Assembly (NCBI GenBank): GCA_000934665.2
Contig: JYFJ02004323.1
Span: 1-33,019 of the forward strand
Length of the DNA stretch: 33,019 nucleotides
Reading direction: 5' to 3'
Source: Catajapyx aquilonaris
Lineage: Eukaryota
Shown: piece by piece, positions 965-32,770 of the stretch
Numbering within the stretch: the stretch's first letter is position 1
Layout: each line of letters starts with the position of its first letter
Made by a program: the position numbers and the translations under genes
The notes under the pieces: generated by a model
Told to the model about the DNA's origin: nothing
The model's database searches: none
What the model saw: the letters and a program-made list of their open reading frames with translations, nothing else

Positions 965-1276
965 TTGCCACCACAATATTCCTCATTTCATTCCGGTTCA
1001 TTTGATATATAATTATGATCATGGGGTTACAACAAGAACTCTACCTTAAATAAATTGTCAGTCCGGCTCCATTGTTGCCGAAAGATGTTGCCATATCTCC
1101 GTGGGATTTTCACCTGGGTGGCTCAAATTTCGTTTTTAGCAACAGCTCATGTGTGTGTACGCACATGATTTTTTATATCAAATTCTGAGATGGTCGAGCC
1201 ACTAACTTGTCTGTATTGACATGGAATGACCCAGATTATTTATTGGTGTTGTTGTTGTTGTTATGTCCTCCTACAG

Positions 1277-2054
1277 GTTCGCCTTCTCTGCTCTGATCGA
1301 AGAGAATCCCAACCTCATCCCGACGGCCACTCCTGTTCGCGTGCTGATATGTGTCTGGGCCCTGGTGTGTGACATACTGGTATGCGGATACGAGGCCAAG
1401 TTCTTTGCCTTTCTGGTGTCCCCTGAAGAGGAGAAGCTGCCAATGAGCTTGAAGGAGCTGGCTTCGACTCCGGGATGGGAATGGGGGTGCATGGATATCA
1501 CATATGAGTACATCCACATGCTGCTCACTCTGTCAGAAGTTGGCTACCACAGTGAGCTACAGCCGGTGATGCAGAAAGGCGGTGGAATGACCGAGTGTGT
1601 CCAGAGGTCAATGGAAGAGAACTTTGCCTGCTTCTCTCTTGATGTCCTTCTGAGTGCCATGAGTGTTCAGCAGATGGATTTGGACGGAATAATACCTGTC
1701 CAAATCATACATGACATGTCCCTGACAAGCTTTGGGGGTTACACCATGGTCAAGTATTCAGTCCTGGAGCACGCCATTAAAAGATTAGAATACAATTTTG
1801 AAAAGGGCGGGTTGTACCTACATTACATCCCTATTTTTGAGTATATCTTGAAGTTGCTCTCCCTGAGATCGGCCCGAAAGATAAACCTGTCTTACAAGAC
1901 CTCGATGGCTCTGAATATAAGTCAGTTCAAGACTCCTTTGGTGGCACATTGCGCCATCATGGCCTTTGCTCTCGTGGTTTTCATTTACGAGGTATTGAAC
2001 TACAGATACGGCAAGGGAAAGGAAGTAGTGAATATAACTGATCAGAAAGAATAA
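1277..2054 (+). CDS. Terminal exon of a divergent ionotropic receptor (IR/iGluR-like): pore segment, M3, S2 and M4. 5' exons not found in window.
   Basis: Acceptor tcctcctacag|G at 1276. Translation FAFSALIEE..PTATPVRVLICVWALVCDILVCGYEAKFFAFLVSP..PMSLKELA fits the IR pattern P-x-x-x-x-x-R-(I/V)-L-x-x-W...Y-x-A-x-L-x-S/A-x-L. C-terminal TM LNISQFKTPLVAHCAIMAFALVVFIYEV; stop TAA at 2052-2054. Confidence 0.8.
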
Positions 2055-2322
2055 GCAGGACCTGATACTGTAGGCAACTTCAAAAGCTCCTTCACATGCA
2101 TGTCGTTACTGCACCATAGCAGATAGCACAATAGTAATGTCACAATTCTTTTTTTTTTAAATATGGTCTAGGCGACATACACAGCTAAACAAGTTTAGAA
2201 TCAGTGCACGTTGGTAATATGCCTGCACAACTGCTTTTAGATTTTGACTGTGGGAGGAAACGGATGTCAGTCGTCTATGTTAATTTGCGCCAAGTTCTTT
2301 ACGCAATGGATGAAAAGGCGAT

Positions 2323-2327
2323 AAAAA
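2323..2327 (-). terminator. Pol III oligo-T terminator of 5S gene
   Basis: TTTTT on the minus strand immediately after the 5S 3' end. Confidence 0.85.
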
Positions 2328-2328
2328 G

Positions 2329-2448
2329 ATGCCAAGTGCACCCGGCATTCCTAGGCGGTCACCCATCCAAGTACTACCCGGGCCCGACGTTGCTTAACTT
2401 CGGGGATCGGACGAGAACCGGTGCTTTCAACGTGGTATGGCCCTTGGC
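2329..2448 (-). rRNA. 5S rRNA: 5S rRNA gene (single copy in window)
   Basis: Minus strand reads GCCAAGGGCCATACCACGTTGAAAGCACCGGTTCTCGTCCGATCCCCGAAGTTAAGCAACGTCGGGCCCGGGTAGTACTTGGATGGGTGACCGCCTAGGAATGCCGGGTGCACTTGGCAT. It is 120 nt, with box A (AGTTAAGC), box C (TGGATGGGTGACC) and paired ends. Confidence 0.96.
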
Positions 2449-2708
2449 GAGAGGGTGAGGAACAAGATGGACTTTGTCTCTCAACTTTTCGAATAGTCAT
2501 GTACGATTTAGGGAACAATGTATGCAAATTTAGGTTAATAAAAATGTTAGAAGTAAAGCGTGGATAGGCAGCTAATTATTGTGACGTCATTGGAAATTTC
2601 AGTTTAGGAGATTACCGCATGAGGCGCCACCAAACATTCCTCCATTTTCATTGCGACAAGACCACTTTTTGGAATATTGTACGTTGTACGTTGTACGACT
2701 AAAAAAAG

Positions 2709-3958
2709 ATGGTTCACTGCAGCGTGCCGTACTGCAAGTCCAACTCGGCCAACAAGGGCCGGATGGGGGTGTCATTCCACGAGTACCCGAGCAACGAGGA
2801 CCTCAGGGCGAAGTGGGTCAGGGCTGTGGCCAGACAAGGTAACGTCGCAAAGCATTTTCATGATGATACTCACTTGAGTTGTGATCAGCCGCCCTGTGCG
2901 TTTCAGGCCCGGAGAAGAACACGTACTGGACACCCTCTGACAGGGACATTGTTTGCAGCAGGCATTTTACGGAGGAGGACTTCCACACGGATTGTAAGAG
3001 GAAGAGGTTAAGGCCGGCCGTGGTGCCGACGTTGTTCCCTGACTATCCGGCGTACATGCAGCCTAAGGTGGTGAAGCGGAGGAAGATACCGGTGCGGCAA
3101 GTACTGGTTAAGAAGAAGCGGATGGAACCGCCTACGGTGGAGGAAGAGGTCGCCAGGATCACTGAAGGCACCGAGGCTATCACAGAAGAAATCATTGAAA
3201 CGGAGGAGGTGTCGCCGATGGTAGGGTTGGGCGAAGCGGTTGCGATGGATGCTGATCCGATACCTCCACCTGCAGACCCGCTTGAAGGGAGCTTACCGAC
3301 ACATCGCGACGCATGTGTGCAGACCAAGATTGATCAGGCCAAGTTTATCGAGAGTGTGCAGTCAAACAAGGTTATGAAGCTTAGCGCGCAGAGGGCCCAG
3401 TCGCGTAATCGCATACTTAGAGAGATGATTGACGAGCTATGTGGGCACAACAAGCAGCTGGAAGAAAAGATGAAGCGGTACAACATTTTTATGCTGGATA
3501 ATGATGCGGAAAATGGTGATTCTCGAGCACTTTTTTTGTTGGAGCAGCTGCAGGCGTATGGGAAGGTAAAGCCAAGGTGGAGCAAGAAGACCATAAAGCA
3601 TTGCAAAGTGTGGCGGTCAATGTCTAACACTGCATATCAGTATGCACAAAAGCTGCCATTGTTGACACTACCAAGTGCGACTACGCTGACCGCGGGTAGA
3701 AGTAAGGATTATGAAGCATGCGAAGAGGAAGCTGCGGAGGCAGGAGCGAGTAGTTCCGGGTTGGACTCTGAAGTTCTACATGAGGAAGCAGCAAGTGGCG
3801 TTGAAGATGAAACGAGAGAAAGTGACAGTGAACAAAAAGGCGCAGCTAAAGACCACGATTACGTTGATCCTACCAAAGATCTTAATTCCCAGTTGGCGAT
3901 CGGAGAACTGATCCAATTCCCACCGGAAGTTTGTCAGGAGCAAGAAATAGTCAGCTAG
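2709..3958 (+). CDS. THAP-domain protein, P-element transposase-derived (THAP9-like, truncated). Exons 2709-2838 and 2907-3958, 393 aa.
   Basis: GT-AG intron 2839-2906 joins MVHCSVPYC..FHEYP..KW to GPEKNTYWTPSDRDIVCSRHF..RLRPAVVPTLF, giving a complete C2CH THAP with AVPT-like box. Then a coiled-coil-like stretch, RWSKKTI..AY..LTLPSATTL (P-element transposase N-terminal motif), and an acidic tail with DHDY. Confidence 0.9.
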
Positions 3959-4277
3959 AGTACGCTGCAGTTAGCTTAACGTTACTTGTACAATGTTGGG
4001 TAATTTTTTTTATTTAAAAAAAAAAAAAAAGTATAATGTTCTGTAAAGTATTGAAATTGTTTTATTTGACATCTTTACAGCTTGCTCCGGCACAATGCAT
4101 GTTCCTTTTTGTAGTTATTTTGTAATTTCATGACTTAAAAGTGACTCTTGGATGGCAATTGGTAAGTATTAATATTTTGGCAATAATTACATTGAACATA
4201 ATTATCCAGTGTCCCATGTACTGTATCGTGTCGAAGCACGAATACGATACTAGTGTTTACACGTTCAAGTCACACAC

Positions 4278-4338
4278 AAATGGCGCAACATTTTTTCCAC
4301 GGCCAATAACAACTCGCCGAATCGTTCAGCGCATGCGC
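4278..4338 (+). promoter_or_regulatory. Putative CLPB promoter motifs (YY1-like and NRF1/EWG-like)
   Basis: AAATGGCG at 4278-4285 and palindromic GCGCATGCGC at 4329-4338, in a CpG-rich patch ~180-240 bp upstream of the ATG. Confidence 0.45.
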
Positions 4339-4516
4339 CCTGCTTATCCTCCGAACAATTGCCTGTCTGGATGCGCCTTCAACATTAACTTGAACATTTT
4401 TGTTCTTCGGACGGTACAGTTTGTAGAGGAATTTTGGTCCGGTGCACCGTCGCCCTTGTACGGCCCCGTGTCCTCGGGCAACCCACGGCGGCACACACCC
4501 ATGAGATGAACAAGGG

Positions 4517-6885
4517 ATGATGCAACTGTTCCCCATGCTTGGAAGGGGTATGGTACTTAGAGTGCTGCTCCGTGGATCAGTGTTGTTCTCGAAGAGGGAG
4601 GCTGTCAGATGGCCCAGGGGCGGCCCGTGGTGCATGCTGCCTTCCTCCAGGGGGGTTGTGGCACAGGCCGGGAGGAGGATGCCCACGGTCAGGATCAACT
4701 GGGCTGACCCCATGTGGAGGATCACCACCGTCGGAGGGCTGCTTGGGGTCGTGTACTGCCAGGATGGGAAGAGTCAGTCCAGTAAGGGAGACTCTCAATT
4801 ACCAGTAGTAGTAGCAGCAACAACATCAAAACCGTTGCCAAACTGGTTCGCTATTTGTAATAATCAACAAATGCAAATGGATTTTGATCAGTTTTTGTTT
4901 TCTTTGCAGCGAGACTCTTCCGTGCTGCAAAGTACGGCAATGAAGAGGAGATCAGGAGGTGAGTTTTTTTTAAACGAAATTTCAGATAAGTAGCTTTCCA
5001 AAGGGGCTTTCCAATGACAATAAATTGGCATGCACAGTCACAGATGGAGCAATTCTGGTTAATTTTAAGTTGACGTGATGTATCGTTGTTGCAGGATTTT
5101 CAGAGAAGGTGTTGATGTGAACCAGAGGCATGAACTGGGCTGGACGGCCTTACATGTGGCGGCTATTAACGGACACACAGAAGTCGTGGAGGCGTTAGTA
5201 GCTGCCGGTGCTAATGTCAACATGGGGGATGAGTTCACCAATGCTCACTTGATGGGGAAAGAGAAAGGAATCCACTCCCTGGAAGTCCTTGTCCGGCGTG
5301 AGGATGAATTCAGCGACAGGCTGAACAACCGGGCTACCTTCAGAGGATGCACGGCTCTGCATTATGCGGTGTTGGCAGACAGCTATGATACCATTGTAGT
5401 GTTGTTGGAGGCTGGCTCGAACCCCCTGCAAGAGAATGATAGTGGACACCGGCCTGCTGAGTATGCCAGGGACCAAAAGACAAAGAAATTGTTACAGCAG
5501 CATGCCAGCAAGTTTGAGGAACTCAAGAAGCAGAGAGAGGCAGAGGAACGTCGAAGGTTCCCCCTGGAGCAGCGCCTGAAGCAGTATATTGTAGGACAGG
5601 AGGGACCCATTACAACTGTAGCCTCAGCCATACGCAGGAAAGAGAATGGTGAGTTCTTGGTATAAATCACTTCTACCATATGTAACACAAAACCTTTACA
5701 GGTTGGTATGATGAAGAGCACCCCTTGGTATTTTTATTCCTCGGATCATCTGGGATTGGGAAGACTGAACTGGCAAAACAGATTGCCCGTTACCTGCACC
5801 GTGAGAGACCAAAGGGGTTTGTGAGGCTGGACATGTCCGAATATCAGGAGAAGCATGAGGCAGCCAAGCTGATAGGTGCTCCACCTGGATATGTTGGCCA
5901 TGACGATGGAGGCCAGTTGACCAAGCAACTCAAGCAGTGCCCGAACGCTGTCGTCTTGTTTGATGAGGTTGATAAAGCTCACCCAGACGTACTTACAGTC
6001 CTGCTGCAGCTGTTTGACGAGGTGACGTACGGAAAAGGAAAATATTTGCCACAAACGTAATGTTGTAACATGCATTGCATGAGCCTTTTACATATTGCTT
6101 GCAGGGACGGTTGACTGATGGGAAGGGGCACACAATAGAATGCAAGGATGCAATATTCGTGATGACTTCTAACTTGGCCAGTGATGAAATAGCCGAGCAT
6201 GGGATGCAGCTCAGGAGAGAGGCAGAGGAGGTAGCCAGGCAGCGATATGAGGGAAAGATTGGTGAGTTGGATAACCTGGAATTCCAAGTTCCAGAACTCA
6301 GAATTGCATTATGCTGTCAATTCTTGCACGTGACTAACAAGAGATTACTTTGCAGATGACGAGGAAATTCCAGACCGTATCACAATATCGAAGCAGTTCA
6401 AGGAGAAAGTAGTCCGCCCGATCCTGAAAAGGCAGTTCCGCAGGGACGAATTCTTGGGACGCATCAACGAGATAGTCTACTTCCTCCCATTCTCGCGTTC
6501 TGAACTAATCAAGCTGGTATCCAGAGAGCTTGACTTCTGGGCCAAGAAGGCAAAGCAAAAGCATGATATTGAGCTTCGATGGGACAGGAAGGTGCTGGAC
6601 GTCCTGGCAGATGGCTACAATGTCCACTACGGAGCCAGGTCCATCAAGTATGAGGTGGAGCGCAGGGTAGTCAGTCAGCTGGCGATGGCCCATGAGAGCA
6701 AGCAGATTTCAAAGGGATCTGTGGTCGAGATCATGGTGGAGGAAGTTGGAAACACTTCAGGAGACGGATTAGAAGCACCGCTAGGGTCCATCAGACTGAG
6801 GGTCAAACCTAAAGGTAAGGAAACGTTTATGGACCTAGACGAGCCATTCAGTAATGCATCACCACTTAATGGAGGGCTTGGCTGA
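4517..6885 (+). CDS. CLPB: Mitochondrial disaggregase CLPB/Skd3 (ankyrin repeats + AAA+). Exons 4517-4781, 4910-4958, 5095-5648, 5702-6021, 6105-6261, 6356-6885; 624 aa from the first ATG.
   Basis: All five GT-AG introns keep the frame. Arg-rich presequence; ankyrin [12 protein letters not shown] and [22 protein letters not shown]; Walker A GSSGIGKT; pore loop GYVG; Walker [35 protein letters not shown]. All match recalled human CLPB motifs. Exact start ATG uncertain. Confidence 0.97.
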
Positions 6886-7599
6886 TCATATGTGATATGG
6901 TTTGTACAATTATGTGTTGTGTCACAAATAAAAAATTATTCATGAAGACTATGATAGTTGTGTCATTGTATTGTATTACGTGAGTTATTAGCGTAACTTT
7001 TGGCCAAAGCCTTGAAAGTCGAAGGCCGTATGCTGTGTTATCATTTTTCCAGAGATTACTTTACAATTAAATAAAAGATTAGTGATTAATTATATTGTGC
7101 CCTTGTGCTAATTACGCATGGAAGGTCATCCAAAAGGTGCAGGTCAGTACAGCATGGGAGTATCCTCGTTAATACTTCCACCGCAAACAGTACATGACAA
7201 GGATAAACATATAGGGCAGGTCAATTATCCACAGCGATGTAACCTACGTGAGTCTGCTGAAATTTAATTTATTTCATACTTCTTACGTGAGCAAAAGTCG
7301 TACGTCAGGTACTAGAGGGTTAAAAGGAAGCTTGTTCACTTCTTAGAGGGATTTCCCCCATAAATTAATGTGTCTATGAGGCAATAATAATAAATCTGCC
7401 CTTGCAGCCAAAGGCCAATTGCACAACCCTTTAACATGTAACGGGTGAACCTTTTTCATACATAGTTTTTTCTCCCACACTGGAATAATATACAACATGT
7501 CTGCGTGTCAGCTTATTACAACCTCGCTTAAAAAAATACGGACAAACAAACGGAAAGAGAGAATAAGCCGATTAGGTAACGTATATTGATGTGATCAGC

Positions 7600-7735
7600 A
7601 TATTGGCACCAGTGCTGGTCACGTGATCCTGGTGGCTTTCATTCTTATTGGCCTATTCGCGTCACGTGATCATCAGGGTGGCCTTAAAGCTTAAACAATA
7701 CAGTTTTTTTTTTAGTAATAAAAAATCTCGCGGGA
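7600..7735 (+). promoter_or_regulatory. Putative SRD5A3 promoter: two GTCACGTGAT E-boxes, two ATTGG (CCAAT) boxes, TCTCGCG motif
   Basis: GTCACGTGAT at 7618-7627 and 7661-7670 in a CpG-rich patch. A candidate donor GAG|GTACGT near 7793 and an acceptor ttttgacag at 9239 suggest a 5' UTR intron. Confidence 0.5.
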
Positions 7736-8518
7736 AAACTTGCTGTGATTCGAATCGATGGTATCATTAGAATGGCCGGGGGTTATTGTCGAGGTACGTG
7801 TCCTTCATACGTGACTGCCTCGAGGGCCAGAGACAGTGAGGCGCCCTTCGTACAGTTGACGTGTGCACATGCGTGTATACAGTACGTTTCGAACGTACTA
7901 TCCGTGCATTTAGAGGAGAATAAACCGGGCTGGGCTGTGTGGCCTTCAAGAGAGGCGCACCACCTGCCCAGTGAAGCAGCACAGTTTGTGTGAGAGAATA
8001 AGCGTCCAAGGCAGCACTAGAAGGGATCACAAAAAGAGACAGCACACACACAGTGGTAATTAAGTCTGATATTGCACCTGTACTGTTAAGCATTTTGTAT
8101 AGAAGAGGGGGCTTCTTCTTGTTGTGTTATGGAGAGTTGCATGGTGCACTCGCTTGCTGCCATTCTTATCCTGTGGATGGTGCGTTACTTAGAGCATGAG
8201 ACTACAGCATATTCCACATAATTGCATAAGGTAGCAAAGCTGAAAGGGTGCGAGAAACATCAAATTGAAATCATGTGAGTTTCTAAGCAGTAATTTTTGT
8301 ATGTATCTGCTGATGGCACTGGGCTGGGATGAGAAACTGCACAATGATGACAGCATGTTGTGGCAATGGAGCTTGTTTATTAAATGATTTTGCAGAATTT
8401 CTGCTGACATGTTGATGAAACGATAATAACAATGTAACAGTAACGAGAATCCTTAAATAGTGCTTTTTCCCTCGACAGTTTTAGCATGTTGTCATCCGTG
8501 ACGTTTGATGTGGTATTA

Positions 8519-8605
8519 CAGTCGACTCCGGATATAACGGACTTTCGTTTATAGCATACTTTTTCCCATGGTCCCTCGAAGTCTTGTTATATCCGGAATC
8601 AACTG
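8519..8605. mobile_element. 87-bp pogo/Tigger-like MITE
   Basis: TA|CAGTCGACTCCGGATATAAC ... GTTATATCCGGAATCAACTG|TA; 20-bp TIRs with 2 mismatches and a TA TSD. Confidence 0.8.
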
Positions 8606-9243
8606 TATGAAGCTTAAATGAATAGGTATTGCTGATATGGAGTTAGCAGTAGATTGCCAAGCAAGGCACTCAATTTTTATAACCTTAGAAATGGCCTTGG
8701 ACGAGTCTTATGTAAGTAAGCTCAAGTTACTTTTATTAATGGATGTGAACCTAAACAAGCAAAGCCAGTTTTCCATATATTTGCATCACACTTTATTATA
8801 TACCCCTTCCTGGAAAGAGTGGAAACATGATCCAATGAAACTATTGCGGTCAGTTCATTGTTGTTCCAGTATGTACAGTACTGTATATTATGTGGCATGC
8901 AGCATGAAGACATAGGAAGTTGTCTGTTTTCAAGCAAAAGTTTCGTAATGCTGTATTCAAGGTTTGTTATGAACAGGTTTCACTGCACCTCTCATCACTA
9001 CAGGTGCATGATAATTATGCTGTATGTTAATCCGCAGGTTTTGTTATGAGATCCCTGCATATTAAGAGTTCAGCAATATTGGCCCTGCATGCATCCCATG
9101 TACTGGGAGAACTGTTGGTTGGTTGGCATGGCATGAATGTACCCCAGTAGGTATGGCTCTTGGGGAAAATAACACATCTGCCAGTAGTGTTAAGTACTCT
9201 TACGTTGTATGATTGATGATTTTTGTCAACTTTTGACAGCACA

Positions 9244-12200
9244 ATGCAAGTCGAAGAAATACTGTCCAACATTGGAGCCATCCCATTATTATTTTGGGCC
9301 ACTGCATTTCTAACGACACTTGGGGCCATGGCGGTGAAGGTGGAAATGTACCTTCCTGGGTTCGTCATCAAGCTGTTCAAGTATGGGAAAACTGCTCCCA
9401 AGGCACTTGAGAAGACTCCATTGGACATTCAAGTACCCAAGAAGTGGTTTGCGCACTTCTACGTGTTTGCCACAGCGTACATGGCATTTGTGGTCTTCAC
9501 TGTTCTGGTGACATACCTAGCAGAGCAGACATTTCCAGGATGGTACAGGCATTTGCTAGAACTATTGCTACCAGAAGCAAAAGTTACAGGTACGGTAATC
9601 AAACTTATTAGATGTAAGATCTGTTTCAAAGTTATATTTCAAGGTGCACACAATATGTGCACAGTTTGTGTGGCTATGAACCAGGGGATTACTTATTATA
9701 AGGAATCGCCAAGGGAATCATTTGGTGTCAGCAGCCTCATTGCTGAGGTTATGGACCACAATGTTCAATGTTGCTTTTCCAACACTGATAACAAGGCTGA
9801 GTTCCAGTATGCCATTCATAGGAGTAATTGTCAAAAGCTCACCACAGCTGATAGACGAATAGATTATGGGTCATCATGATTCAGGTGATACATATTAGGT
9901 TGTGATCTGGCTAGAGAGATGTGGTGAATGTATGGTCATTGCAAAACTTCCAGTACGTGCTATACTTCATATTGTAACTTATGTAACGAGGCTGTAGAGA
10001 TCAAAGGACTTCCCTATGGCTCATGGAGTTCACCTGGAAAGTTTTTCATAATCATTATTTAACCTACGTACCTTATACCTGTTGCAGCCTTCTACGACCT
10101 TCACAAAGCTGAGATTGCAAAGTATTCACAGTCAGTTGAGTTATAAAGGATTTGAAAGAGTTACAATGGCCCTATTTAAGTGCCATTAAAATGTTGGATA
10201 AACAATTATCAATTATGAAACACATTATTTTGAAATTGCAGAAGCTTTGACGCAATCTGTCAGCATCAACTATCATTCCCTCATTCATTATGAACATTTT
10301 TGTCCAACACACACTGTCCAACACCAAAGGTCCAGTTGCTGGTTGATCATGAATGGAAGACATATCTTTTGTCTTTGGATGAATAGTTTGAATGAAAGGG
10401 TATATTGTAGCCTGCAAGATTTCAGTTGGACAAAATATCTTTGGTTGAAAATGGTTTAGGTGAAGTCGGGTGAAGTGTTATGCAACCATAATACAGGGCT
10501 ATTCATAAGTCTTGACCCTATTTTAAAAATTCGCCAAAAATACACTACACAACAGATAGTTGTAATTAATATGCCAAAAGAGCGAGAAAGGATCCGAGTT
10601 TTTTTTACAGCAAACCCCTCTCGTGTTGTAGCCTTGCTGTGCTGCTAGGAGGCAGTAGTTAGAAAATGATAAATTATGCATTATAAATGAACATAGAGGA
10701 TTACCTCTTTCAACAAGATGGTGCTCCACCTAATTTCCATACCCAGGTGCGATGGTACTTCAACCAAAATCTACCACGACGTTGGATTGGACGCACAAGT
10801 CCCGATGATGAGGTGTTAATGCGGTGGCCACCCTGGTCACCCGATTTAACTCGCGACTTTTTCTTACTGGGATTTGTGAACGACACTGTCTTTGTGCCTC
10901 CACTCACTGCCAATGTCCAGGAACTTCGCCACCGCATCACCATGGCTGTCACAAACTCTCAATGATTGACCTAACAAAAATTTACTCCATTTCGCCCCAT
11001 ACGCGAGCAAGCATGTCACATGCTTGCTCGCGTATGGGGCGAAATGGAGTATCGGATAGATGTGTGCCGCATCTCCAGAGGAGGACACATTGAACATTTG
11101 TAATGTGTGTAAAAAAAACTCGGATCCTTTCTCGCTCCTTTGGTATATTAATTACAACTATCTGTTGTGTAGTGTATTTTTGGTGAATTTTTAAAATAGG
11201 GTCAAGACTTTTGAATAGCCCTGTATATTGTTCCTAAGCGTAAGCATTCATGCAAGAATTAATAGTCCATTCACACAACTATAGTTTCTCTGCAGACAAG
11301 TGCTTGAGTTTTTGGTGACTGGGCATAGATTCAGTAACCAATATGATTACCTAACATCTGCATTTCCATGAATAATTCTTCATGCAAATACAGTTGCTCA
11401 CATCCACAATATCCTCCTGAGACCTAATGTCGTCATATCTCAACATCAGCAAAATATATATTTTGGTGCCAGCTAGTGGTGCCAACAGAACTGTAATCGG
11501 TTGGTATCCCATGATTACAATCTGGCCTCAATAAGGAGCCACCTAAGTGTCGAATATGTGACTTTGGCCGCGAAAATTAAATCACACACTGCCACTACTC
11601 ACTCACTCACTGCTCACTGCCGCTGCTGAATCCAGGCACTCATCCGATAAGTTTTATTTTTCTCCTCATTAATTTTAGTGCGATTTTCGTCAATGCAACT
11701 AATGTCCTGGGATTCACAAGGAATGTGTATTAGGAAATGCGAAAAGATGTGTCCGCATGACAATCTTTGTTGCTGTAGAGAACTGGTGATTTTCTTTTCC
11801 TCCTGAGACCCAATGTCCATTTAAAAGTTTTTTTTATCTGAATGGGCTGTGACTTTTCTTTAAGTGTCTATACACCCATAAGGAAGTGTGCTTTGCACTA
11901 TGCAGTTCAGTTTTAACAAATTAGAATAGCGAGGTACCATGCTAGGGGGTAAGAAGGGCCATGCCTGGAGTGGTGGCCTTGAAAAATAATTTCATGTTAA
12001 TCATTAATTGTCTTCTGAGAGGAATTGCTAACATGAATTCCACAAATGAATTTTAAAAACATTGTTTTGAGGATAGAGCACTATGTTAGTGATCCATTAA
12101 GTGGCATTTTAATTTTCAGCTTTCATCTGTTCTGCTTTTGCAGCAGCAATTGAGTCCTAATGTTCTCATTGGTTGTTTGTCATTATTTTTGTCAATATTT

Positions 12201-13558
12201 TAGAACTATCATTTTTTTCTCATTTCTTAATGAGAAAATGTTCAGAAAATGCAATAGGAACTGGCATTGTGTTACTCCATTCTTCTCGGGTCTCGGGAGG
12301 ATATACCTGAACCGCTTCGTGGCCTCCATAGTCAGCATATTGATAATAAATTATGCACATTTTATGTATTTATTGGCCACCTATGACCTATTGTGTGTCT
12401 TTTCCTTTAAAGCTCACTAGTCACACAAATAAGGTTTTGCACCTTGAAGGGTAGGCGACATCAGGCCTTAGGTGATTTAATAATCTGTCACTCTTCCTAT
12501 TGTTTCATATTGTAGCTGCAGTTTATTGTATCACAGTAAGACCTGCTGCATACTCTCATATTAATACTCACCATGTCACACTACTATTAGCACAATCAGG
12601 TTAATCTAATTTGACAGTGCTGTTTTATTAGTGCCTTTTCCAGCAGCTAACAATGTGCCTTCTGCATTTATACAGGCTCACTACTTGAAACTTGAGGCTC
12701 TTACCAGGTGTGTGCCGGCATTTCCTTACCTGTAGCTTACCTCTACCCTAGTTGTACCTTGCTAGTATAGAGCCTACAATATGATTTTATTTAATGCCTT
12801 CAGGAAGTTCTCGAGGCAGATTATTGTTCACCTTCTTTATTAATTTTTATTTTTTAATAGTGTCTCCATCTGTAATCATGCTGGCAACATTCTTGTTCCT
12901 GATGCAAGTATCAAGGCGGCTGTATGAGTGCTACTTCATCAGTATCTTCTCCCCGGCCACCATGAGTGTCTTCCATTACGCAGTTGGATTCGCCCACTAC
13001 TTTGGTTCTTCTACCTCCCTGTTGACCCAGGCACCAACTCACTTCAGAGGAAACCTGAGTCTCTCTGAGATTAGTCCAACAGCTTGGGTGGGCACTGCCA
13101 TTTTCATTTGGGCTTGGTATCAGCAATACGCTGCTGCATTGGGCCTTGCCAATTTGCGCAAGAAAAAGGATGGTTAGTCAATAGCACATGCGTCAGAGTC
13201 ATGATATTTGCTATTTTACAAGTTACGTTGAACCCAATTCCAGGAAGCATAAGTCATGAGCATCGGATGCCTCAGGGAGGGCTGTTTGAGCTGGTGTCGT
13301 GTCCACATTATTATGCAGAGGTGCTTATTTACTCTTCCATGTACCTGATTGTTGGATTTGGAAACTTTGCATGGCTGGCTGTGTTGGCCTGGGTTGTATC
13401 CAATCAGGTAAGATTTTCAGTATGTTGCTGCATGAGTAAAAGGCTGATCCATTTTTATTTTTCAGACTATAAGTGCCCTTATGTGCCATGAATGGTACCA
13501 GAAGAAATTTAAGAGTTATCCCAAGAATCGAAAGGCTATTTACCCATTTGTGCTGTGA
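9244..13558 (+). CDS. SRD5A3: Polyprenol reductase (SRD5A3/DFG10 family). Exons 9244-9589, 12861-13172, 13244-13407, 13466-13558; 304 aa.
   Basis: In-frame GT-AG splicing. Motifs KYGKT, VPKKWFAHFY, QVSRRLYEC, HYAVGFAHY, LANLRK, HRMPQGGLFELVSCPHYYAEVLIY, NQ..SAL..HEWY..KFKSYPKNRKAIYPFVL. Confidence 0.95.
10494..11223 (+). mobile_element. Non-autonomous Tc1/mariner element (730 bp) in SRD5A3 intron, with C-terminal transposase remnant
   Basis: TA TSD on both sides; ~115-bp TIRs (CAGGGCTATTCATAAGTCTTGACCC.../...GGGTCAAGACTTTTGAATAGCCCTG). Internal 10687-10965 reads FQQDGAPP..RWIGR..WPPWSPDLTRDFFLLGFVND.VFVPP. Confidence 0.93.
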
Positions 13559-14020: not shown

Positions 14021-14104
14021 ATGCATGATCAAGTCACACCACATGAAAATTATTGCTCTTTATACAGAGCAATAATTTTCATGTGGTGTGACTTGATCAT
14101 GCAT
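14021..14104. repeat. Perfect 39-bp inverted repeat with 6-nt loop
   Basis: 14021-14059 is the exact reverse complement of 14066-14104; loop ttatac. Confidence 0.95.
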
Positions 14105-15740: not shown

Positions 15741-18089
15741 AGAAAGATTCGAGATGATGTGGACACTCGTATTATTGAATTTAAGAGTTGTTTGTGGTTG
15801 TATGAAGCCATAATTATGAAAACACAGTAGGCAAATAAATTTTTTGAATGTGTACTGAATAACATTTTGAAATGCAAAAATGAAGTTGATTGATTGAAGT
15901 TTAATTGTGAAGTACAAAACTATAGCATTCAGGATTTTCAATGCAATTTAAGTTTCAAACACTAATGACAGTCAAATCTTGAAGAAACCCGAAATAACAA
16001 TATGTACTGCATAATTAGTATTAGTTCATATTTTACGTCGCTGATGTCACCCGCTCATTAAGCGTTGAAATTAATGTCATATACACGACACTGTCTCTTT
16101 GATAGACGTGGGCAGAACAACATGATGAGCCAGAAATCAAGCTTTGATTTTCTCCACGATAAGCAGTCACCGATTTGTTACGGTCTTACCCCAACATTAA
16201 TTGGATTAACAACGATCCGCCATACATTTTCTCATGTCTTATTGCCTGGCCACACACACCAGGCGATCCCGTCCCTGATTATTGTACACACACTCGAGCA
16301 CCCCCAATAAAGCAGAAGTCCAAACCTTTTGTTTGCCAATCAAGTATTATAATCGTGATTTGCAAAAAAAGGCGTTTTCCTAAACCGTGGGCAGGGTGTA
16401 ACGGAGACTTCCTGCTATGACCTTTACTAATCCTCAAGGAAATCTGGCTGCCAGCAAGATTCCACACATCACCGCCACAATATCCCAGTCAACGACCTTT
16501 CCAAGGTTGTTCCCTCAGTCCCTCACCATTACACCTGAGGGCTTATCTCTGGCNTACCCCCCCCCCCCCCCTCCACAAAACCTCCACTTGACAAATGTCC
16601 AACAGCTTCCGTCTGCAGGTTCATTGCTATGCTAATGAGCTGAGGAGCAATAATGATAACTTGAACGAAGGAAGAAGAAAAAAAATTAGTGTGTACACAT
16701 GGCTTAGAGAGGAGGAGACACATAGATATTTGAGTCAATTAAGTGTCATGGTAGCGATTGAGAAAAATTGAGATGGGAGTGATTTTGGGCCGGGGCCGAA
16801 GCGGAACAGCAGATGAAGGATGATTGAGATGACGAGTTCCGTAAATAAATCTCATTTTGGCGGACGGCCAGGAATTCCATTTGCTGTGCAAAGTAGAATA
16901 ACTCTCAAGAGCTGATTACATGTGTCGAGAGAAGGGCTTTGGAGACAGGGAGATATGCAGTCCATAGGGGTCGTTTACATTGAGTCAAAGTGTATGCAAA
17001 TATCTCAAATTTCTGTTATCTACCCAATTGTTTGACTCCCAGCAACTGGCATATTGGTCCAATAAGAGTGTTGAATTGCTGGTTGCTGCCCATTGGAGCT
17101 TGAGGTTGCCCTGGTGCTGCATAGGTGCTGCGACCTTACCTATTATGCAAGGACGGCTGAGGGGTTGAGGACTGGACTCCAGTGCTGGTTGGTGGGTGTG
17201 TGCGAATACATTCCGCATCCGCTTCGTGCAAGAATTTTTGATCAGGCGGGGGATGGCGAAATATTAGCCAGTCACACACACCCTTCGTGCTCACATTCAT
17301 CATCACATGTGACATGTGCAGGTGGGCCCCCATTACCTTTTTTCCATTGGCTCCCATGTTGATGCCATTACATGAGAATGTAGGGGCTGATGCCCAGACT
17401 AGAAATTGCAACAAATTCGCAGCATTACCGGAATTTGAAGATTGTACTTTGTTGATTTTTGAGCAGGTCAGGAATTTACACGGTTTGGCTGCATTTCCAC
17501 CTGGCCCAAGTTCACCCTCCAGCAGGGTGACGTCAACTGCCAAAGATTTCCACCAGAACATTACCTCACCGCGCGCCTCTCTCATCGCATAGCATGGCAT
17601 GCTTCCTTACAAGAAGAAGAAGAAAAAAAAAACCGCATGCAATTATTTCCCCCCCTCGGACTATAAATCCCGCCGGATTTATTAACCAACCAGCTTTGCG
17701 ACCAATTAGCCCAGCCAACAGTCGCAATTATGTGACGCACTTGATGTCTCAATGATGCTATATGGCTTTTCAACCGGACAGGTCAGCATCCTTTTTTTTT
17801 AAACAAAAAAAAAGGGGGGGGGGGGGACCAGCTCCNGAAGGGGATAAGAGGGGAGGGGGGGTAGAAAAAGCCCCCACGCTGGGCGCCAGTAAATACAGGT
17901 AGCAGATGCGGAGATCATGTTGACACGGACAAGGGGGCCCACAAAAAAAAAGACGGTGCAGCAACAACAACAACCCCGAAGAAAAAAAATTGTAACAAAT
18001 GAACCGACTGAACGGCCGGTTTTTGCTGTTAGGCCAAATCCTTCAAGGGGCCTGGTTTGCCCCGGAGTCAACCGCCCCGTTATGTTACA

Positions 18090-25348: not shown

Positions 25349-27495
25349 AAGAGACTGGTCCCCCTCCGCCCAAAAGAGGAGGATGTGAAAGCAGTGTAGG
25401 TTGGTCCACCTGCTCTGACCTGAGGTTGACAGGAAGAGTAAGGAAGCCAATCATGAGGCCTGCTGCAGCATCTCTTTTGTAGTATATAACGTGGGTGAAA
25501 CCCGCGGGTGCAGCCAACTTTTATAGGACAGGGCGGTATAATTATTATGTGGAGCTGCAGGATGTGACCAAATTAGACAAGGGGGAAGGAGCAGCTACAA
25601 TATGTGGAACGGTATTGTTGCTGGGGTCTGCAGAGGAACATGATTTCCCAGAAGAGGACGTCGTCGAACAAGCTTCCTTTTCTTCGTCTTATCGGTTTGG
25701 TTGGGGAGAAGATGAGGGAAAAAAATGGTTTCTGGTGGCTCCTGACACACACAACCTCGCTTCTGTAAACCCGATGCCCCACACTCCTCTCTCTGTCCTA
25801 ACACACAAGCTCACTGTGCCTGTACAGGGTGCTTCAGTTGCTTATTAGAAAGCAACTTAATTGGACCACCCTATATGTATGGGGACGATTGCTTCCAGGG
25901 TACGAAAGGTATTTTTTTTAAATATGTAAAGACCCTGCCCACTGACCTCACGAGACTGTGACTCCACCCTGGTGACCTCCTACGGTCCCCTGCGGAGGGC
26001 GAGGATTGCCCTCCACCCTTTTACCATGCAAAAATTCGGCTGCAAAAACAATAGGTTAGATTTAACCTGGTTTAAACTAGCAGCTAATGTTGGGATGGAG
26101 ATAAATAATGAATAACGTGGTCCCCTCCCATTTCCATGGCCTGATCCTATGGATGGAGAATTAGAATGGAGGTTCTGTGGTCGTTTTTTTTTTTTTTAAG
26201 TGAGGGGTGGGTGGGGGAACAACAGTGAGGGCCCCACCTGCCAGGTGTTGGAAGGACGTGGGATGATTGCTGCTGTAGCCGCTGCTGCTACCTCTGGCTG
26301 GAAGAGAAGGCTCAACAGTGCCTACTACCAGAACTATCACCATTGCACCATGCTATTTTTTGGCACACTAATTGCTGGACAACAAAAGCAACAGGTTCCT
26401 TTATACTAAACCCTAAGGGATTTATGAATAAGGTGCGGGGGCGATTTCCAAGGAGGATGTGGCGTCAGTCACAAGACAAATTGCTTCCTCGCTGCAGCCC
26501 AAGCCACCCTCTCTCCATCCATGATATTCAGAGCTAATGCGTGCTCCTAGCTGCTGACCCCCTCAGTCCCAAAATTGCTTCGTCGGTATGAGAGATATGG
26601 GCCCCCAAGTTGCGTTATAGGGAGGTCATTCAGTTAGGAAGACCACACGTTTTGTATTCAGGCCAATTCCGCCCAAATGGATTTGGGTCATAATATTTTC
26701 TTAAAAGGTGTCAAAGGGGATGGCAGGAGTCGGAATGAGCCTTAGGCCACGCCCCCTTTCTTCGTGACAATATGAGAGCGACTGCGATTATTTATCGAGG
26801 AATGACATTTTTTGGTGCTGAAAATAAGTGGTGGAATGCTTGTTTATAGGTATGGTTAAGTTATTTGTGTACAAATTTTCCAAATCCCAGACCAAGGCTA
26901 GGACTCCGTGGTGACAGATGAGATAAAATATGCACAGGGTGGTGCACTGCCCATGTTCCCGTGTTTTGGCAGGGATACGTGGGCTTAGGGTGGCCATTTC
27001 CAAATCGGACAGCTGCTATGTAGGTATAGTATATATACAGATATACAGTATACAAGTGTACGTATAATGAATATGATTTTTTTTTTACTTCGTGATAACC
27101 GAAATACATAAATGACTAAATTATTGTACTTAACACACTAACAACTAACGTCTTAAGCATAAAAATGTAACATAAATCAAGCATGTTTTGTGATGAGCTG
27201 AAGTTGAAGAATAAAATGCCATAGAAAGGCTAATGAGAGCTAATGAAATTTCCATTGTCTATTGTATTCTTATTGATTCTTCAGTGCAAATGTGGGTGAT
27301 GAGATTGGCGCAGGGCACTCTGGCACAGTAGTTATTGCATGGCCTTCAGTTCCCGAACGTTCAGCTGTTCTAGTACAACCCCAGAAAATTTATTTAATAG
27401 TACAAGAGTATTTTCTTGCCAATTCATTAGCCCGTCTTGCAGTGATGGCGCCCTTTCTTTACAATAAGTACATGCTGGAGAGAGTGTCAGTATCG

Positions 27496-27586
27496 GAGGA
27501 GCGCAGTGGTCTAGTGGCTAAGGCGCTTTATTCGTAGCCTGAAGGTTGAAGGGTCGAATCCTGAAAGTAACGCGGCGTTTCTTTTT
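27496..27586 (+). other. tRNA-derived Pol III cassette 1, left arm (not a true tRNA)
   Basis: A box TGGTCTAGTGG 27507-27517, B-box-like GGTCGAATCC 27552-27561, T5 at 27582-27586; no intact cloverleaf. Confidence 0.6.
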
Positions 27587-27696
27587 ATCGCTATGGACCT
27601 TTCTCGCTCTTACTTGGTCTCTCATTTCACATTTATTTCTCTTTGAAGTGCATCTGGTAAATAGGCTAGACCCTTCCAACACCCATAATTTCGTTA

Positions 27697-27773
27697 CCAC
27701 AGAGCGTGGCACTATGGTAACGCATCAGACTCTCAATCGGGAGATGTGGGTTCAAATCCCTAATCTCCACGGT
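27697..27773 (+). other. tRNA-derived Pol III cassette 2, left arm (not a true tRNA)
   Basis: A box TGGCACTATGG 27707-27717, anticodon-like arm TCAGA-CTCTCAA-TCGGG, B box GGTTCAAATCC 27749-27759. Confidence 0.65.
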
Positions 27774-29331
27774 TGATGAGTCAGAAAAAAAAAATTTGCA
27801 GCCGACATCTCTGGCCAAGATGGCGACTGTTTCTTCGCAGTTTCCCAAACACTTCTTCAGAGGTGTTAGAGGAGCAGCGAAGAGGGGGGGGAGGGTGGAG
27901 AGGGGGAGGAAAGGGGGGGGAGGGGAGAAAATGTTTTTGGAAATTTTTAAAACACCTGCTTAATGGGAGGGGGCGGTCACTTTTTTCTTCGAAAAAAGTC
28001 AAAGATTTAAAAAGTCACTTAAATGATCAAGTGGCTTCGCTTGTGTTGTCCATCCCGGCAGCCCCCACCCTACTCACCCCATAGTGACTACATTTGTCTT
28101 ATACCAGGGAGTTACATTCTCAAACCTATCATCCCCCCAAATATTCACTCCTAAAATTTTAACTATAGGTCCAATAAAATCACCAGCACATGCAAATGAA
28201 TCGGCACATGTTTTAGGTCATTTTCAATGGTTTGTTGCAGCCTGACCTTTGACATGAAAGACCCTAGTATTAGGTTTTTGGTCTAGGGCCAGGCCCTACC
28301 TCGGTCTCCATCTGTCGGGTCTTTCGTAATGAGACTGTATACAGAGAGTACAGTACAATATATATCTCTGTGTGAGGTAGTAATGCCCCTATCCAAACGT
28401 ACGTAGTTGGCAGGTATCAGTATGAATGTGACGTAGGCGAGTGGTCATCGTCACCACCTTGGGGTCATCAGGACGGACATTCGGCATCACTGTTTCGTGC
28501 CATTGCTCTATGGATTAATAAAATAATAAATCCCGACCCGCTTCGGCTGTGGGTGGAGATGTGCATATCGTCGACGCGGTTTTACATAGGCAAATTTTCG
28601 ATTAGGCTTGGTGACCTTCATGTCTCTTTGACCTTACATATTCCCCCCTTTCCACCCCCGCCCCGCTACCCACAAGGACAGGCGGACTGCTACAATAGGC
28701 TAGCAGGCTAGAGGCATACTTGTTCACATCGAGAGATATACTCTGTATCTATGTACTGTGCTCTGTATACAGTCTCATTACGAAAGACCCGACAGATGGA
28801 GACCGAGGTAGGGCCTGGCCCTAGACCAAAAACCTAATACTAGGGCCTTTCATGGCAAAGGTCAGGCTGCAACAAACCATTGAAAATGACCTAAAACATG
28901 TGCCGATTCATTTGCATGTGCTGGTGATTTTATTGGACCTATAGTTAAAATTTTAGGAGTGAATATTTGGGGGGATGATAGGTTTGAGAATGTAACTCCC
29001 TGGTATAAGACAAATGTAGTCACTATGGGGTGAGTAGGGCGGGGGCTGCCGGGATGGACAACACAAGCGAAGCCACTTGATCATTTAAGTGACTTTTTAA
29101 TTCTTTGACTTTTTCCTTCGAAAAAAGTGACCGCCCCCTCCCATTAAGCAGGTGTTTTAAAAATTTCCAAAAACATTTTTTCCCCTCCCCCCTTGCCTCC
29201 TCCTCTCCACCCCTCCCCCCCTCTTCGCTGCTCCTCTAACACCTCTGAAGAAGTGTTTGGGAAACTGCGAAGGAACAGTCGCCATCTTGGCCAGAGATGT
29301 CGGCTGCAAATTTTTTTTTTCTGACTCATCA

Positions 29332-29408
29332 ACCGTGGAGATCCGGGATTTGAACCCACATCTCCCGATTGAGAGTCTGATGCGTTACCATAGTGCCACG
29401 CTCTGTGG
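29332..29408 (-). other. tRNA-derived Pol III cassette 2, right arm
   Basis: Mirror copy: B box at 29346-29356, A box at 29388-29398. Confidence 0.65.
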
Positions 29409-29518
29409 TAACGAAATTATGGGTGTTGGAAGGGTCTAGCCTATTTACCAGATGCACTTCAAAGAGAAATAAATGTGAAATGAGAGACCAAGTAAGAGCG
29501 AGAAAGGTCCATAGCGAT

Positions 29519-29615
29519 AAAAAGAAACGCCGCGTTATTTTCAGGATTCGATCCTTCAACCTTCAGGTTACAAAGAGAGAGTCTTAACCACTACACCACT
29601 ACACCACTACGGTAC
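29519..29615 (-). other. tRNA-derived Pol III cassette 1, right arm
   Basis: Mirror copy: B-box-like GGATCGAATCC at 29544-29554; A box TGGTGTAGTGG within a tandem (TAGTGGTG) repeat at 29588-29611. Confidence 0.6.
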
Positions 29616-30266
29616 CTCGATGCTGACGCTCTCTCCAGCATGTACTTATGGTAAAGAAAGGGCGCCACAAAATACCATTAATCTCAATGTAGTGTCATTT
29701 GTCAAATAAATTCTCATAATATATCCTTGTATATTTTCTACGGGAATTGATACAATTCAACAATATTAGTGTGTTAAGTAAAATAATGCGGTAATTTGTG
29801 TGTTTCAGTTATATTAAGTAAAAAAAGGCATATTCAATATACAGTATGTTGTTTAAAACAAAACCACATTCGTCTACAGTCTACACAATTGTATATAATA
29901 GGAGACGGGACCCAGGGGTGCTGCTGGAGTCGTGACAAATGGCTCCAGGCTTCAGAAGTGAGGGTCATCGCCAGGTCGTCTTTTAAGAATAGTCGTAAAA
30001 ACCCCGCGCATTTTCAAAATAGAAAAATACTGCCGACCGGTCGCTCGAGCAAGGGATGTTGTCATAAATGTCTCGACCGGGTACACCGTTACGTATATCA
30101 TCAGCCCGAGTACCCGACGAGGTGATTCACATATTTTGGAAAAGTCCAAATGTGTGCTTAAGGAGCTGGTTTGAGGCATTAGTCACCAAAACTCTTGGAA
30201 ATCGAGGGATGTAAGAGGGTCTCTGAACTATATTGCGAGATTTTTCGGCCAAACTTTACGTGCCTT

Positions 30267-30381
30267 CTGCTTGAAAACTATTTAAATATAGTTTTCAAGC
30301 AGTTCCCAGTTCTCAGAAGTAGAAAAAAAAATCAAGTCTGTAAATTAACAGACTGGATTTTTTTCTACTTCTGGGAACTGG
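30267..30381. repeat. Two adjacent hairpins (15-bp perfect stem; ~35-bp near-perfect stem)
   Basis: ctgcttgaaaactat/atagttttcaagcag at 30267-30302; ccagttctcagaagtaga...gtctgt/acagac...tctacttctgggaactgg at 30306-30381. Confidence 0.85.
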
Positions 30382-32197: not shown

Positions 32198-32770
32198 ATT
32201 TCGATATATTTTCAAAATATCTCACAGTGCGATTTATCGAACAATATTTTTCAGAATATCTCAGCAGTGTGATATTTCGATATATTGACCAATACTCTTC
32301 AAACTATCTCAACAATGATATTTCTATATAACTAACAGTTTCAAAATATCGCAGCAGTGATATTTCGATATATCGACCAATATTTTCAAAATATCGCAGC
32401 CGTGTGATATTTCGATGTATCGACCAATATTATTCAAAATATTTCAACAATGTGATATTTACATATAACTAACAATGTTTCAACATATCTCAGTTCTGTT
32501 ATCGACCACTATTTTCAAAATATCTCAGCCGTGATATATCGATATATCGACTAATACTTTTAAAATATTCCAACAATGTGATAATATGTCGATATATCGA
32601 ATAATGTTTCAAAATATCCCAGGCGTGTGTTAATATCGCACTATATTTGTACATATCGAAGCCGTGTGGCATTTCGATATATATCGAACTATTTCAAAAT
32701 GTATCAGCCGTGTGATCTCTTTCGATATATGGAACAATATCTTTACAATGATCGATATGTTTAAAAATAC
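32198..32770. repeat. Degenerate minisatellite, ~43-45 bp unit, ~13 copies
   Basis: Approximate consensus gtgatatttcgatatatcgaccaatattttcaaaatatc(g/t)cagc(c/a)gt. Confidence 0.9.

Follow-up and report, generated by a model that had tools for sequence, protein, structure and literature searches.

The palindrome and its setting

The window, by which we mean the whole 33,019-nt stretch of Catajapyx aquilonaris contig JYFJ02004323.1 analyzed here, carries host genes between positions 1230 and 13491 (an intron-poor ligand-gated channel ORF, a THAP protein, an ankyrin and AAA gene that is presumably ClpB-like, and a steroid-reductase-like gene) and, toward its other end, a palindrome with the following parts.

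26986..27196 (26986-27006 and 27062-27196), + strand: decayed remnants of the outer sequence of the repeat family
27446..28394, + strand: left arm of the palindrome, sequence common to many loci
28395..28705, no strand: asymmetric non-coding spacer, found family-wide (151 first-look candidates, 40 scored)
28706..29667, - strand: right arm, the inverted copy
29668..29859, - strand: right outer remnant, common to other copies, which stops without a terminal repeat

Each arm is ~950 bp long, and the two align at 93.5% identity. The window copy is a mosaic, as its arms are 87% alike over the cassette-1 segment (described below) and 98-99% alike further in (99% over 27581-27880, 98% over 27931-28340), and the cassette-1 segment of each arm is nearer to other family copies than to the opposite arm. 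The repeats at this locus are inverted, with no long direct repeat found among them; no tandem array was found in the arms, and in the copies inspected the arm ends are ragged and without a target duplication. The left outer remnant yielded neither a terminal repeat nor a target duplication, and a search of the 33-kb window for the hAT 15-mer described below, allowing up to two mismatches, returned no matches. The window copy is without hAT ends and retains outer remnants only.

Four Pol III-type cassettes

The initial annotation described four inward-facing, tRNA-derived Pol III cassettes built into the palindrome, and their parts are present as it claimed. There are two tRNA-like A/B-box heads per arm, both tRNA(Arg)-like; the left-arm A boxes are exactly 200 bp apart; all four heads point toward the spacer; the first T5 run closes a 90-nt unit in cassette 1 and a unit of ~240 nt in cassette 2, in both cases mirrored in the right arm; and a YY1-like motif and a G4-type motif lie inside cassette 2, each with a counterpart in the right arm. 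What the annotation missed is that the four cassettes are not independent, as a single tandem pair was duplicated in inverted orientation and thereby gave rise to four inward-facing units, and that the palindrome that carries them is a dispersed repeat.

27467..27474, + strand: AGTACATG motif upstream of cassette 1; mirror at 29639-29646
27497..27586, + strand: cassette 1 left, tRNA-Arg-like head; A box 27507, non-canonical B box 27551-27561, T5 27582-27586
27656..27672, + strand: 17-mer ~50 nt upstream of the cassette-2 A box, a candidate upstream promoter or protein site; mirror at 29433-29449
27697..27938, + strand: cassette 2 left, predicted ~240-nt Pol III unit; A box 27707, B box 27749-27759, T5 27934-27938
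27816..27825, + strand: CAAGATGGCG, YY1-like, intact in 73 of 77 arm copies; mirror at 29280-29289
27884..27925, + strand: G4-type purine tract, a hotspot of one-sided arm truncations in the family
29169..29408, - strand: cassette 2 right, mirror unit; A box 29398, B box 29356, T5 29173-29169
29519..29608, - strand: cassette 1 right; A box 29606, family-type B box, T5 29523-29519

A strict A-box/B-box pattern matches three of the four heads and nothing else in the 33-kb window, compared with 0.09 in shuffled sequence (200 shuffles); the exception is the left cassette 1, whose B box is GGGTCGAATCC instead of the GGATCGAATCC seen in 65 of 80 family copies. As had been expected, no true tRNA was called: ARAGORN recognized none of the four heads and Rfam none at E<=5, so by the cloverleaf criterion no head is a tRNA gene. 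Heads in other copies reach 21-28.5 bits against the Rfam gathering score of 29, and one copy (L022) is called by ARAGORN yet scores 23.3 bits. The nearest real tRNA for both heads is Arg, at 67-73% identity over the A-to-B segment among 22 tRNA segments drawn from 30 loci, an incomplete sample of the genome's tRNAs, and local scores are well over the shuffle maxima. ARAGORN at a lowered threshold made 93 calls in the window, which were discarded as pure noise.

A dispersed repeat family

The palindrome is a dispersed non-coding repeat family of, by our estimate, roughly 100-150 copies. First-look searches of the genome (285.6 Mb) with four parts, namely cassette 1, cassette 2, and two spacer pieces, gave 128-242 candidates each (the four counts being 128, 151, 221, and 242, with 151 for the spacer), with 40 scored for each, and the 17-mer upstream of cassette 2 has 206 exact matches in the genome, compared with none for its reversed control. 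Among the 100 17-mer matches listed (71 contigs), an inward-facing pair occurs on 26 contigs and an outward-facing pair on none. In run X1, the summed contig depth rises from ~30 outside the palindrome to 1,000-13,000 inside it; run X5 gave three short pieces only and was excluded as evidence. The multi-locus candidates, the depth, and the 17-mer matches show that the cassettes are repeat-borne and that this is not a unique locus. As a locus, the window palindrome is ordinary, a single decaying copy of a repeat.

The family contains several forms. An older one, at ~24 loci (L188-L211), combines one arm with half of the spacer and with a paralogue of cassette 2 that is diverged and faces inward, and some of these copies add a second arm. 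One lineage is without cassette 1; in another the cassette-2 B box is degenerate and the cassette-1 B box canonical; and in two lineages outside the hAT branch described below the outer sequence differs and no ends were identified. An apparent shared terminus without a target duplication in lineage c was rejected, as a fourth copy runs past it.

These observations bear on the suggestion that the window locus serves the host, either as a symmetric TFIIIC boundary or as a dedicated paired ncRNA gene. The strict boxes kept in three of the four heads and the intact YY1-like motif would fit such a role, whereas the window copy is one of at least 100, nothing sets it apart, and it is a mosaic in which the left cassette-1 B box is mutated. 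The boundary in particular finds no backing in sequence divergence among copies: over 127 distinct arm segments (of 175 alignments, the remainder being duplicates), the A and B boxes diverge by 0.044 per site and the rest of the arm by 0.060 (p=0.53), and the boxes are thus no better conserved than their surroundings, and the lineages just described dispense with cassette 1 or carry a degenerate cassette-2 B box. Against the rest of the heads alone (0.087), the boxes do differ in the same 127 segments (p=0.026), a comparison between copies that are not independent. We regard a host function at this locus as very improbable.

Exchange and truncation of the arms

Within the family, exchange between the two arms of a copy keeps them alike. 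The median identity of a copy's own two arms is 95.3%, compared with 90.2% between copies, although this likeness is possibly inflated by short-read assembly; the own arm is the nearest relative in 23 of 39 two-armed copies, and in a tree of inner arms the two arms of a copy pair as a supported cherry in 16 of 27 copies, whereas 8 copies are unpaired and the remaining 3 are unresolved or weakly supported. Run X2 placed two arm-specific variants on separate contigs, at depths of 8.4 and 17.5 compared with 21-25 on the flanks. The G4-type tract is the start point of 24 of 60 distinct inner-arm pieces, from which the cassettes upstream have been lost, with the reservation that 15 of the 60 are lineage boundaries and that alignments also tend to break in such tracts. 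The tract looks like a liability, as truncations that remove the upstream side cluster there, and their polarity agrees with the G4-induced deletions described for worms in the available part of PMC4654259. The family is a natural setting in which to test arm-to-arm conversion and G4-linked deletion.

Mobility in a hAT-type composite

Sequence shared between copies, traced outward, leads to two fixed ends that have a 15-bp inverted repeat in common. At G000:C225:17866-24101, these 15-bp terminal repeats bound a 6,236-bp element that contains the palindrome and is flanked on both sides by an 8-bp direct repeat. Short terminal inverted repeats together with an 8-bp target duplication are the signature of hAT elements. 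The 15-mer has 80 exact matches in the genome, and among 40 of these loci examined, both ends were found in 14, with 8-bp duplications that are perfect in 12 and have one mismatch in 2, so both the composite and these 14 loci show the features of a non-autonomous hAT. The 14 two-ended loci measure 277-1,937 bp and lack most or all of the palindrome; since such short derivatives moved without the cassettes, the cassettes are dispensable for hAT mobility. Approximately 20 palindrome-bearing loci retain one hAT end, and one locus has been shown with both. Mobilization by hAT is demonstrated for one branch, and for the other lineages it is inferred at most, as the window copy has neither end and two lineages lack identified ends. 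The genome contains 134 matches to the hAT dimerization domain, several in open frames of >500 aa, and an autonomous partner may be among them; in ten of these loci (~3 kb or less each), the 15-mer at up to three mismatches was found in none.

The composite at G000:C225:17866-24101 (L076, L038, L063) is itself nested: its hAT-type ends enclose the palindrome together with a tRNA-Ala copy, small hairpin repeats, and an insert at a TA site. The short hAT versions provide empty sites (L094, L096, L099) for the nested insert, which has a TA duplication and 43-bp inverted ends. These features and a motif likeness suggest a mariner, a label that Pfam did not confirm, as the single 92-aa frame searched matched no transposase family. 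A near-intact tRNA-Ala(TGC) gene with a shared upstream flank rides in the element's outer region (L073/L173, L174, L072); the gene at G000:C1386:48031-48102 scores 70 bits, and the hAT-branch copies have lost their 3' end. A separate tRNA-like head of SINE type, ~70% alike to cassette 2, occurs at L066:7810-7910, L082:1340-1440, and L124, and one copy is inserted in the element's outer region.

In having long inverted arms, a non-coding middle, and many copies, the family resembles foldback elements. Galileo (PMC3573991) and Tetris (PMC4079207), as far as they are described in the available sections of those papers, share with it the arms and the middle, the extension of arms by recruitment of internal sequence, and chimeric copies without target duplications, and both extension and conversion between arms have been proposed there, for Galileo in PMC3573991. 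The differences are that the long inverted repeat here is internal, the only ends found being short and hAT-type; that its arms are without a tandem-repeat domain; and that they bear Pol III-type units, which those sections do not mention for Galileo or Tetris. In the copies inspected, then, the long arms are not termini with a target duplication and internal tandem repeats. A second likeness is to the multicopy Pack-TIRs of animals, and in particular to Pack-hAT-N8_XT in the main text of PMC8277862, a non-autonomous hAT with captured DNA and distinct target duplications, many copies of which lose an end. Its cargo is a gene fragment with a known parent, whereas the cargo here comprises nested repeats, a tRNA-Ala copy, and the 2.4-kb palindrome, and the term tRNA is absent from that main text.

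The TRIMp3 elements Cassandra, Helenus, and Ajax are likewise non-autonomous and have a Pol III promoter derived from a small RNA in their repeated arms, according to the portion of PMC10886601 considered here. They are LTR retrotransposons with direct repeats, a PBS, and a PPT, in which Pol III probably makes the template, whereas the repeats here are inverted, and the palindrome locus has no direct LTRs with a PBS and PPT. The T5 runs would end Pol III transcription after ~90 and ~240 nt, and Pol III therefore cannot copy the palindromic element. Retroelement readings (DIRS, Penelope, and TRIMp3) were rejected on this early stop and on the lack of a shared ORF in up to 10 kb of flank from 17 stretches.

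Origin of the heads

SINEs derived from tRNAs, dimeric ones included, have a tRNA-like head with A and B boxes and a structured body. The cassettes have such heads, and the heads differ from those of SINEs in lacking a poly(A) or tandem tail and a target duplication and in having conserved upstream flanks. A search for the cassettes as free SINEs revealed no large family with these heads, and at the first-look threshold no free copy was found that starts at the head and has both a tail and a target duplication. All 20 of 20 loci picked by cassette 1 alone continue upstream of the head, and 99 of 118 internal alignment ends fall in the last query bin, at the spacer.

The heads are 69% alike between deep lineages (z 5.5-6.7 against shuffles), and the linkers fall to chance. 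Head conservation was rejected as a stand-alone sign of selection, as unrelated tRNAs are equally 69% alike, and it therefore counts only together with the upstream motifs that are kept. The AGTACATG motif retains the same offset in a deeply diverged lineage, and the 17-mer is identical, with its 50-nt spacing, in the paralogue of cassette 2, whose head is only 69% identical. Motifs kept at such fixed offsets favor common ancestry at the DNA level.

An alternative that must be weighed here is that the heads are old SINE or tRNA-pseudogene pieces captured by the repeat, that the hairpins described below are leftovers or products of local template switching, and that no selection acts in the family. 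We consider this reading rather unlikely, yet several observations agree with it: the A and B boxes are not specially conserved among copies, the heads are dispensable for hAT mobility, head-to-head identity (67-71%) is no higher than the background of unrelated tRNAs, and the composite bears other cargo, such as the tRNA-Ala gene copy. It fits poorly with the upstream motifs, which retroposition would not carry, and with the search for head 1, whose 229 candidates are about the size of the family itself. A hairpin-1 model run on 408,782 bases from 70 sources points the same way, as it matched family members only, plus two partial matches (E 0.58 and 0.92).

The heads also entered an earlier suggestion that read-through of the whole palindrome yields a hairpin RNA and hence siRNAs against SINE heads. 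Arms that are 93-99% identical would give long double-stranded RNA if transcribed, and this is what speaks for it. The longest exact match of an arm is 10 nt to six other SINE-like heads and 14 nt to 42 tRNA calls, which is too short to lend any support, and any siRNAs would chiefly hit the family itself; we regard such a trap as extremely improbable.

Cassette 2 as a predicted two-hairpin RNA

Cassette 2 is predicted to specify a Pol III RNA of ~240 nt with two hairpins of ~55-60 nt, which appears to be new here.

27726..27784, + strand: hairpin 1, ~60 nt, with the B box in the apical loop (z -5.8; mirror 29321-29379, z -6.0)
27833..27882, + strand: hairpin 2, ~55 nt (z -3.9 in the window copy; mirror 29223-29272)

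The predicted 242-nt unit folds better than 200 of 200 shuffles (z -3.4), and in hairpin 1 the anticodon-arm region pairs with sequence past the B box; the scores are for fold windows picked after the fold was seen. Of the paired small ncRNAs that the initial annotation had envisaged, cassette 2 remains a candidate, as its two hairpins persist across diverged subfamilies, whereas cassette 1 has no significant fold (z -1.15 and -0.23).

Hairpin 1 occurs in two subfamily forms that are only 72% identical between flanks that are 88% and 97% identical. Both forms fold at -34 to -39 kcal/mol, compared with ~-17 kcal/mol for a random-substitution null with the same number of changes, and in nine pairings at most 4 of 1,000 null sequences were as stable. 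In the second form, folding is confined to the Pol III-sense strand (z -5.5 vs -0.8), with 5-7 G:U pairs in each of seven rows, and the sense fold is stronger than the antisense fold in 75 of 77 related hairpins. Hairpin 2 lies at the same position in forms that are 54-64% identical, with z -2.6 to -5.3 in seven of the ten arm copies folded and z -1.3 to -1.9 in the other three. In the cassette-2 paralogue the fold is weak and favors neither strand, and the degenerate cassette-2 B box belongs to the lineage whose hairpin is the most strand-specific.

Divergence of the hairpins beyond that of their flanks with pairing still kept, together with a folding that is G:U-rich and confined to the sense strand, argues against a passive origin. 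The variants within the stem of hairpin 1 refine the picture. Those that are shared comprise 5 G:U and 2 A:C, compared with 3 G:U and 11 A:C among rare ones (Fisher p=0.04). On the other side, the stem also has five mismatch types that are shared, and taken by itself the G:U test is weak (p=0.23 over the shared variants). Rare variants mostly disrupt pairs, and formal covariation was not significant in four of five measures over 65 rows (65 of the 77 hairpins, with seven rows out of register), the sole excess over shuffles being in cells with a two-sided change (2/500). Selection has therefore probably acted on the source elements and not on the window copy, and the pattern is consistent with source elements under selection whose individual copies afterward decay neutrally.

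The hairpins and motifs might instead be signals in the DNA, as single-stranded hairpins or protein sites acting in cis in the copying of the element, and not an RNA gene. The blocks most invariant across lineages are the 17-mer and the CAAGATGGCG block rather than the B box, the ends are ragged, and selection confined to source elements fits a role in cis. The many G:U pairs and the layout from A box to T5 fit RNA better, and neither an autonomous partner nor a replication protein was found near the copies examined; we consider a cis-acting role improbable.

In layout, cassette 2 resembles the TMERs of the herpesvirus MHV68, which in the available part of PMC4838037 are Pol III RNAs of 200-250 nt with a tRNA-like element and two hairpins. 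Cassette 2 has this arrangement, including the tRNA-like start and the terminal U run, as a prediction only. The TMERs are viral and have a complete tRNA-like element upstream of both hairpins, whereas in cassette 2 the 3' half of the tRNA-like head is taken up into hairpin 1; the likeness is one of layout, and no sequence link is claimed. For TMER4, the same source reports that the shape of the stem-loop mattered more than its sequence. The resemblance could suggest that the family is what remains of a virus-like element, with long inverted ends and genes for Pol III hairpin RNAs, that a hAT captured at a later stage. No ORF is common to the copies in up to 10 kb of flank from 17 stretches, and a 22-base motif had no match in viral contigs and none in metagenome contigs, which leaves this origin scarcely credible.

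Interpretation

The explanation that we favor, and hold to be on balance probable, is that the window contains an end-less copy of a non-autonomous, DNA-mobilized, foldback-shaped composite in which cassette 2 serves, or served until recently, as a genuine Pol III gene of the source elements. A tandem pair of tRNA(Arg)-derived Pol III units came to lie in both arms by inverted duplication, and exchange within copies keeps the arms alike, which by itself accounts for the four inward-facing cassettes. At least one branch travels in a hAT-type element, as one full copy and the deletion derivatives show. Cassette 2 of the source elements would be transcribed into a ~240-nt RNA with two long hairpins, whose retained shape would be kept by selection on the propagating lineages. 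The element may benefit by staying transcribed and accessible, or its hairpin RNA may engage the small-RNA machinery; the preferred reading includes either. Individual genomic copies, the window copy included, would then decay.

More tentatively, as a possibility rather than an expectation, we propose a wider reading in which a DNA-mobilized arthropod repeat bears, in each of its inverted arms, a Pol III gene of its own for a two-hairpin RNA, under selection in the lineages that propagate. It might then be a DNA-transposon counterpart of both the TRIMp3 promoters and the viral TMER-type RNAs, serving the element either as a small-RNA source or decoy or by opening chromatin. Why a cut-and-paste or foldback element should need a structured Pol III RNA is not obvious, and the family would matter if cassette 2 is expressed. 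In the literature covered, most subscription papers, Repbase reports, and supplements being outside its scope, no structured Pol III RNA is described in such an element, and consensus tables of transposons in supplements or Repbase could hold a similar one; the available parts of PMC3845634 and PMC10498592 contain nothing on the palindromic element.

Minor repeats of the window

The window contains several smaller repeats. A 736-bp element at 10491-11226 has 119-bp inverted ends starting TACAGGG, and we take it to be probably a Tc1-type MITE. Short palindromes at 168-499, 14021-14104, and 30306-30381 are probably MITEs as well, the last of which has weak matches to Rfam miRNA precursors, far under the gathering score. 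A degenerate tandem array of 45-48-bp units occupies 32204-32749, and a 23-bp repeat occurs in three copies, at 18089, 24467, and 26934, one of which lies just left of the element's outer remnant.
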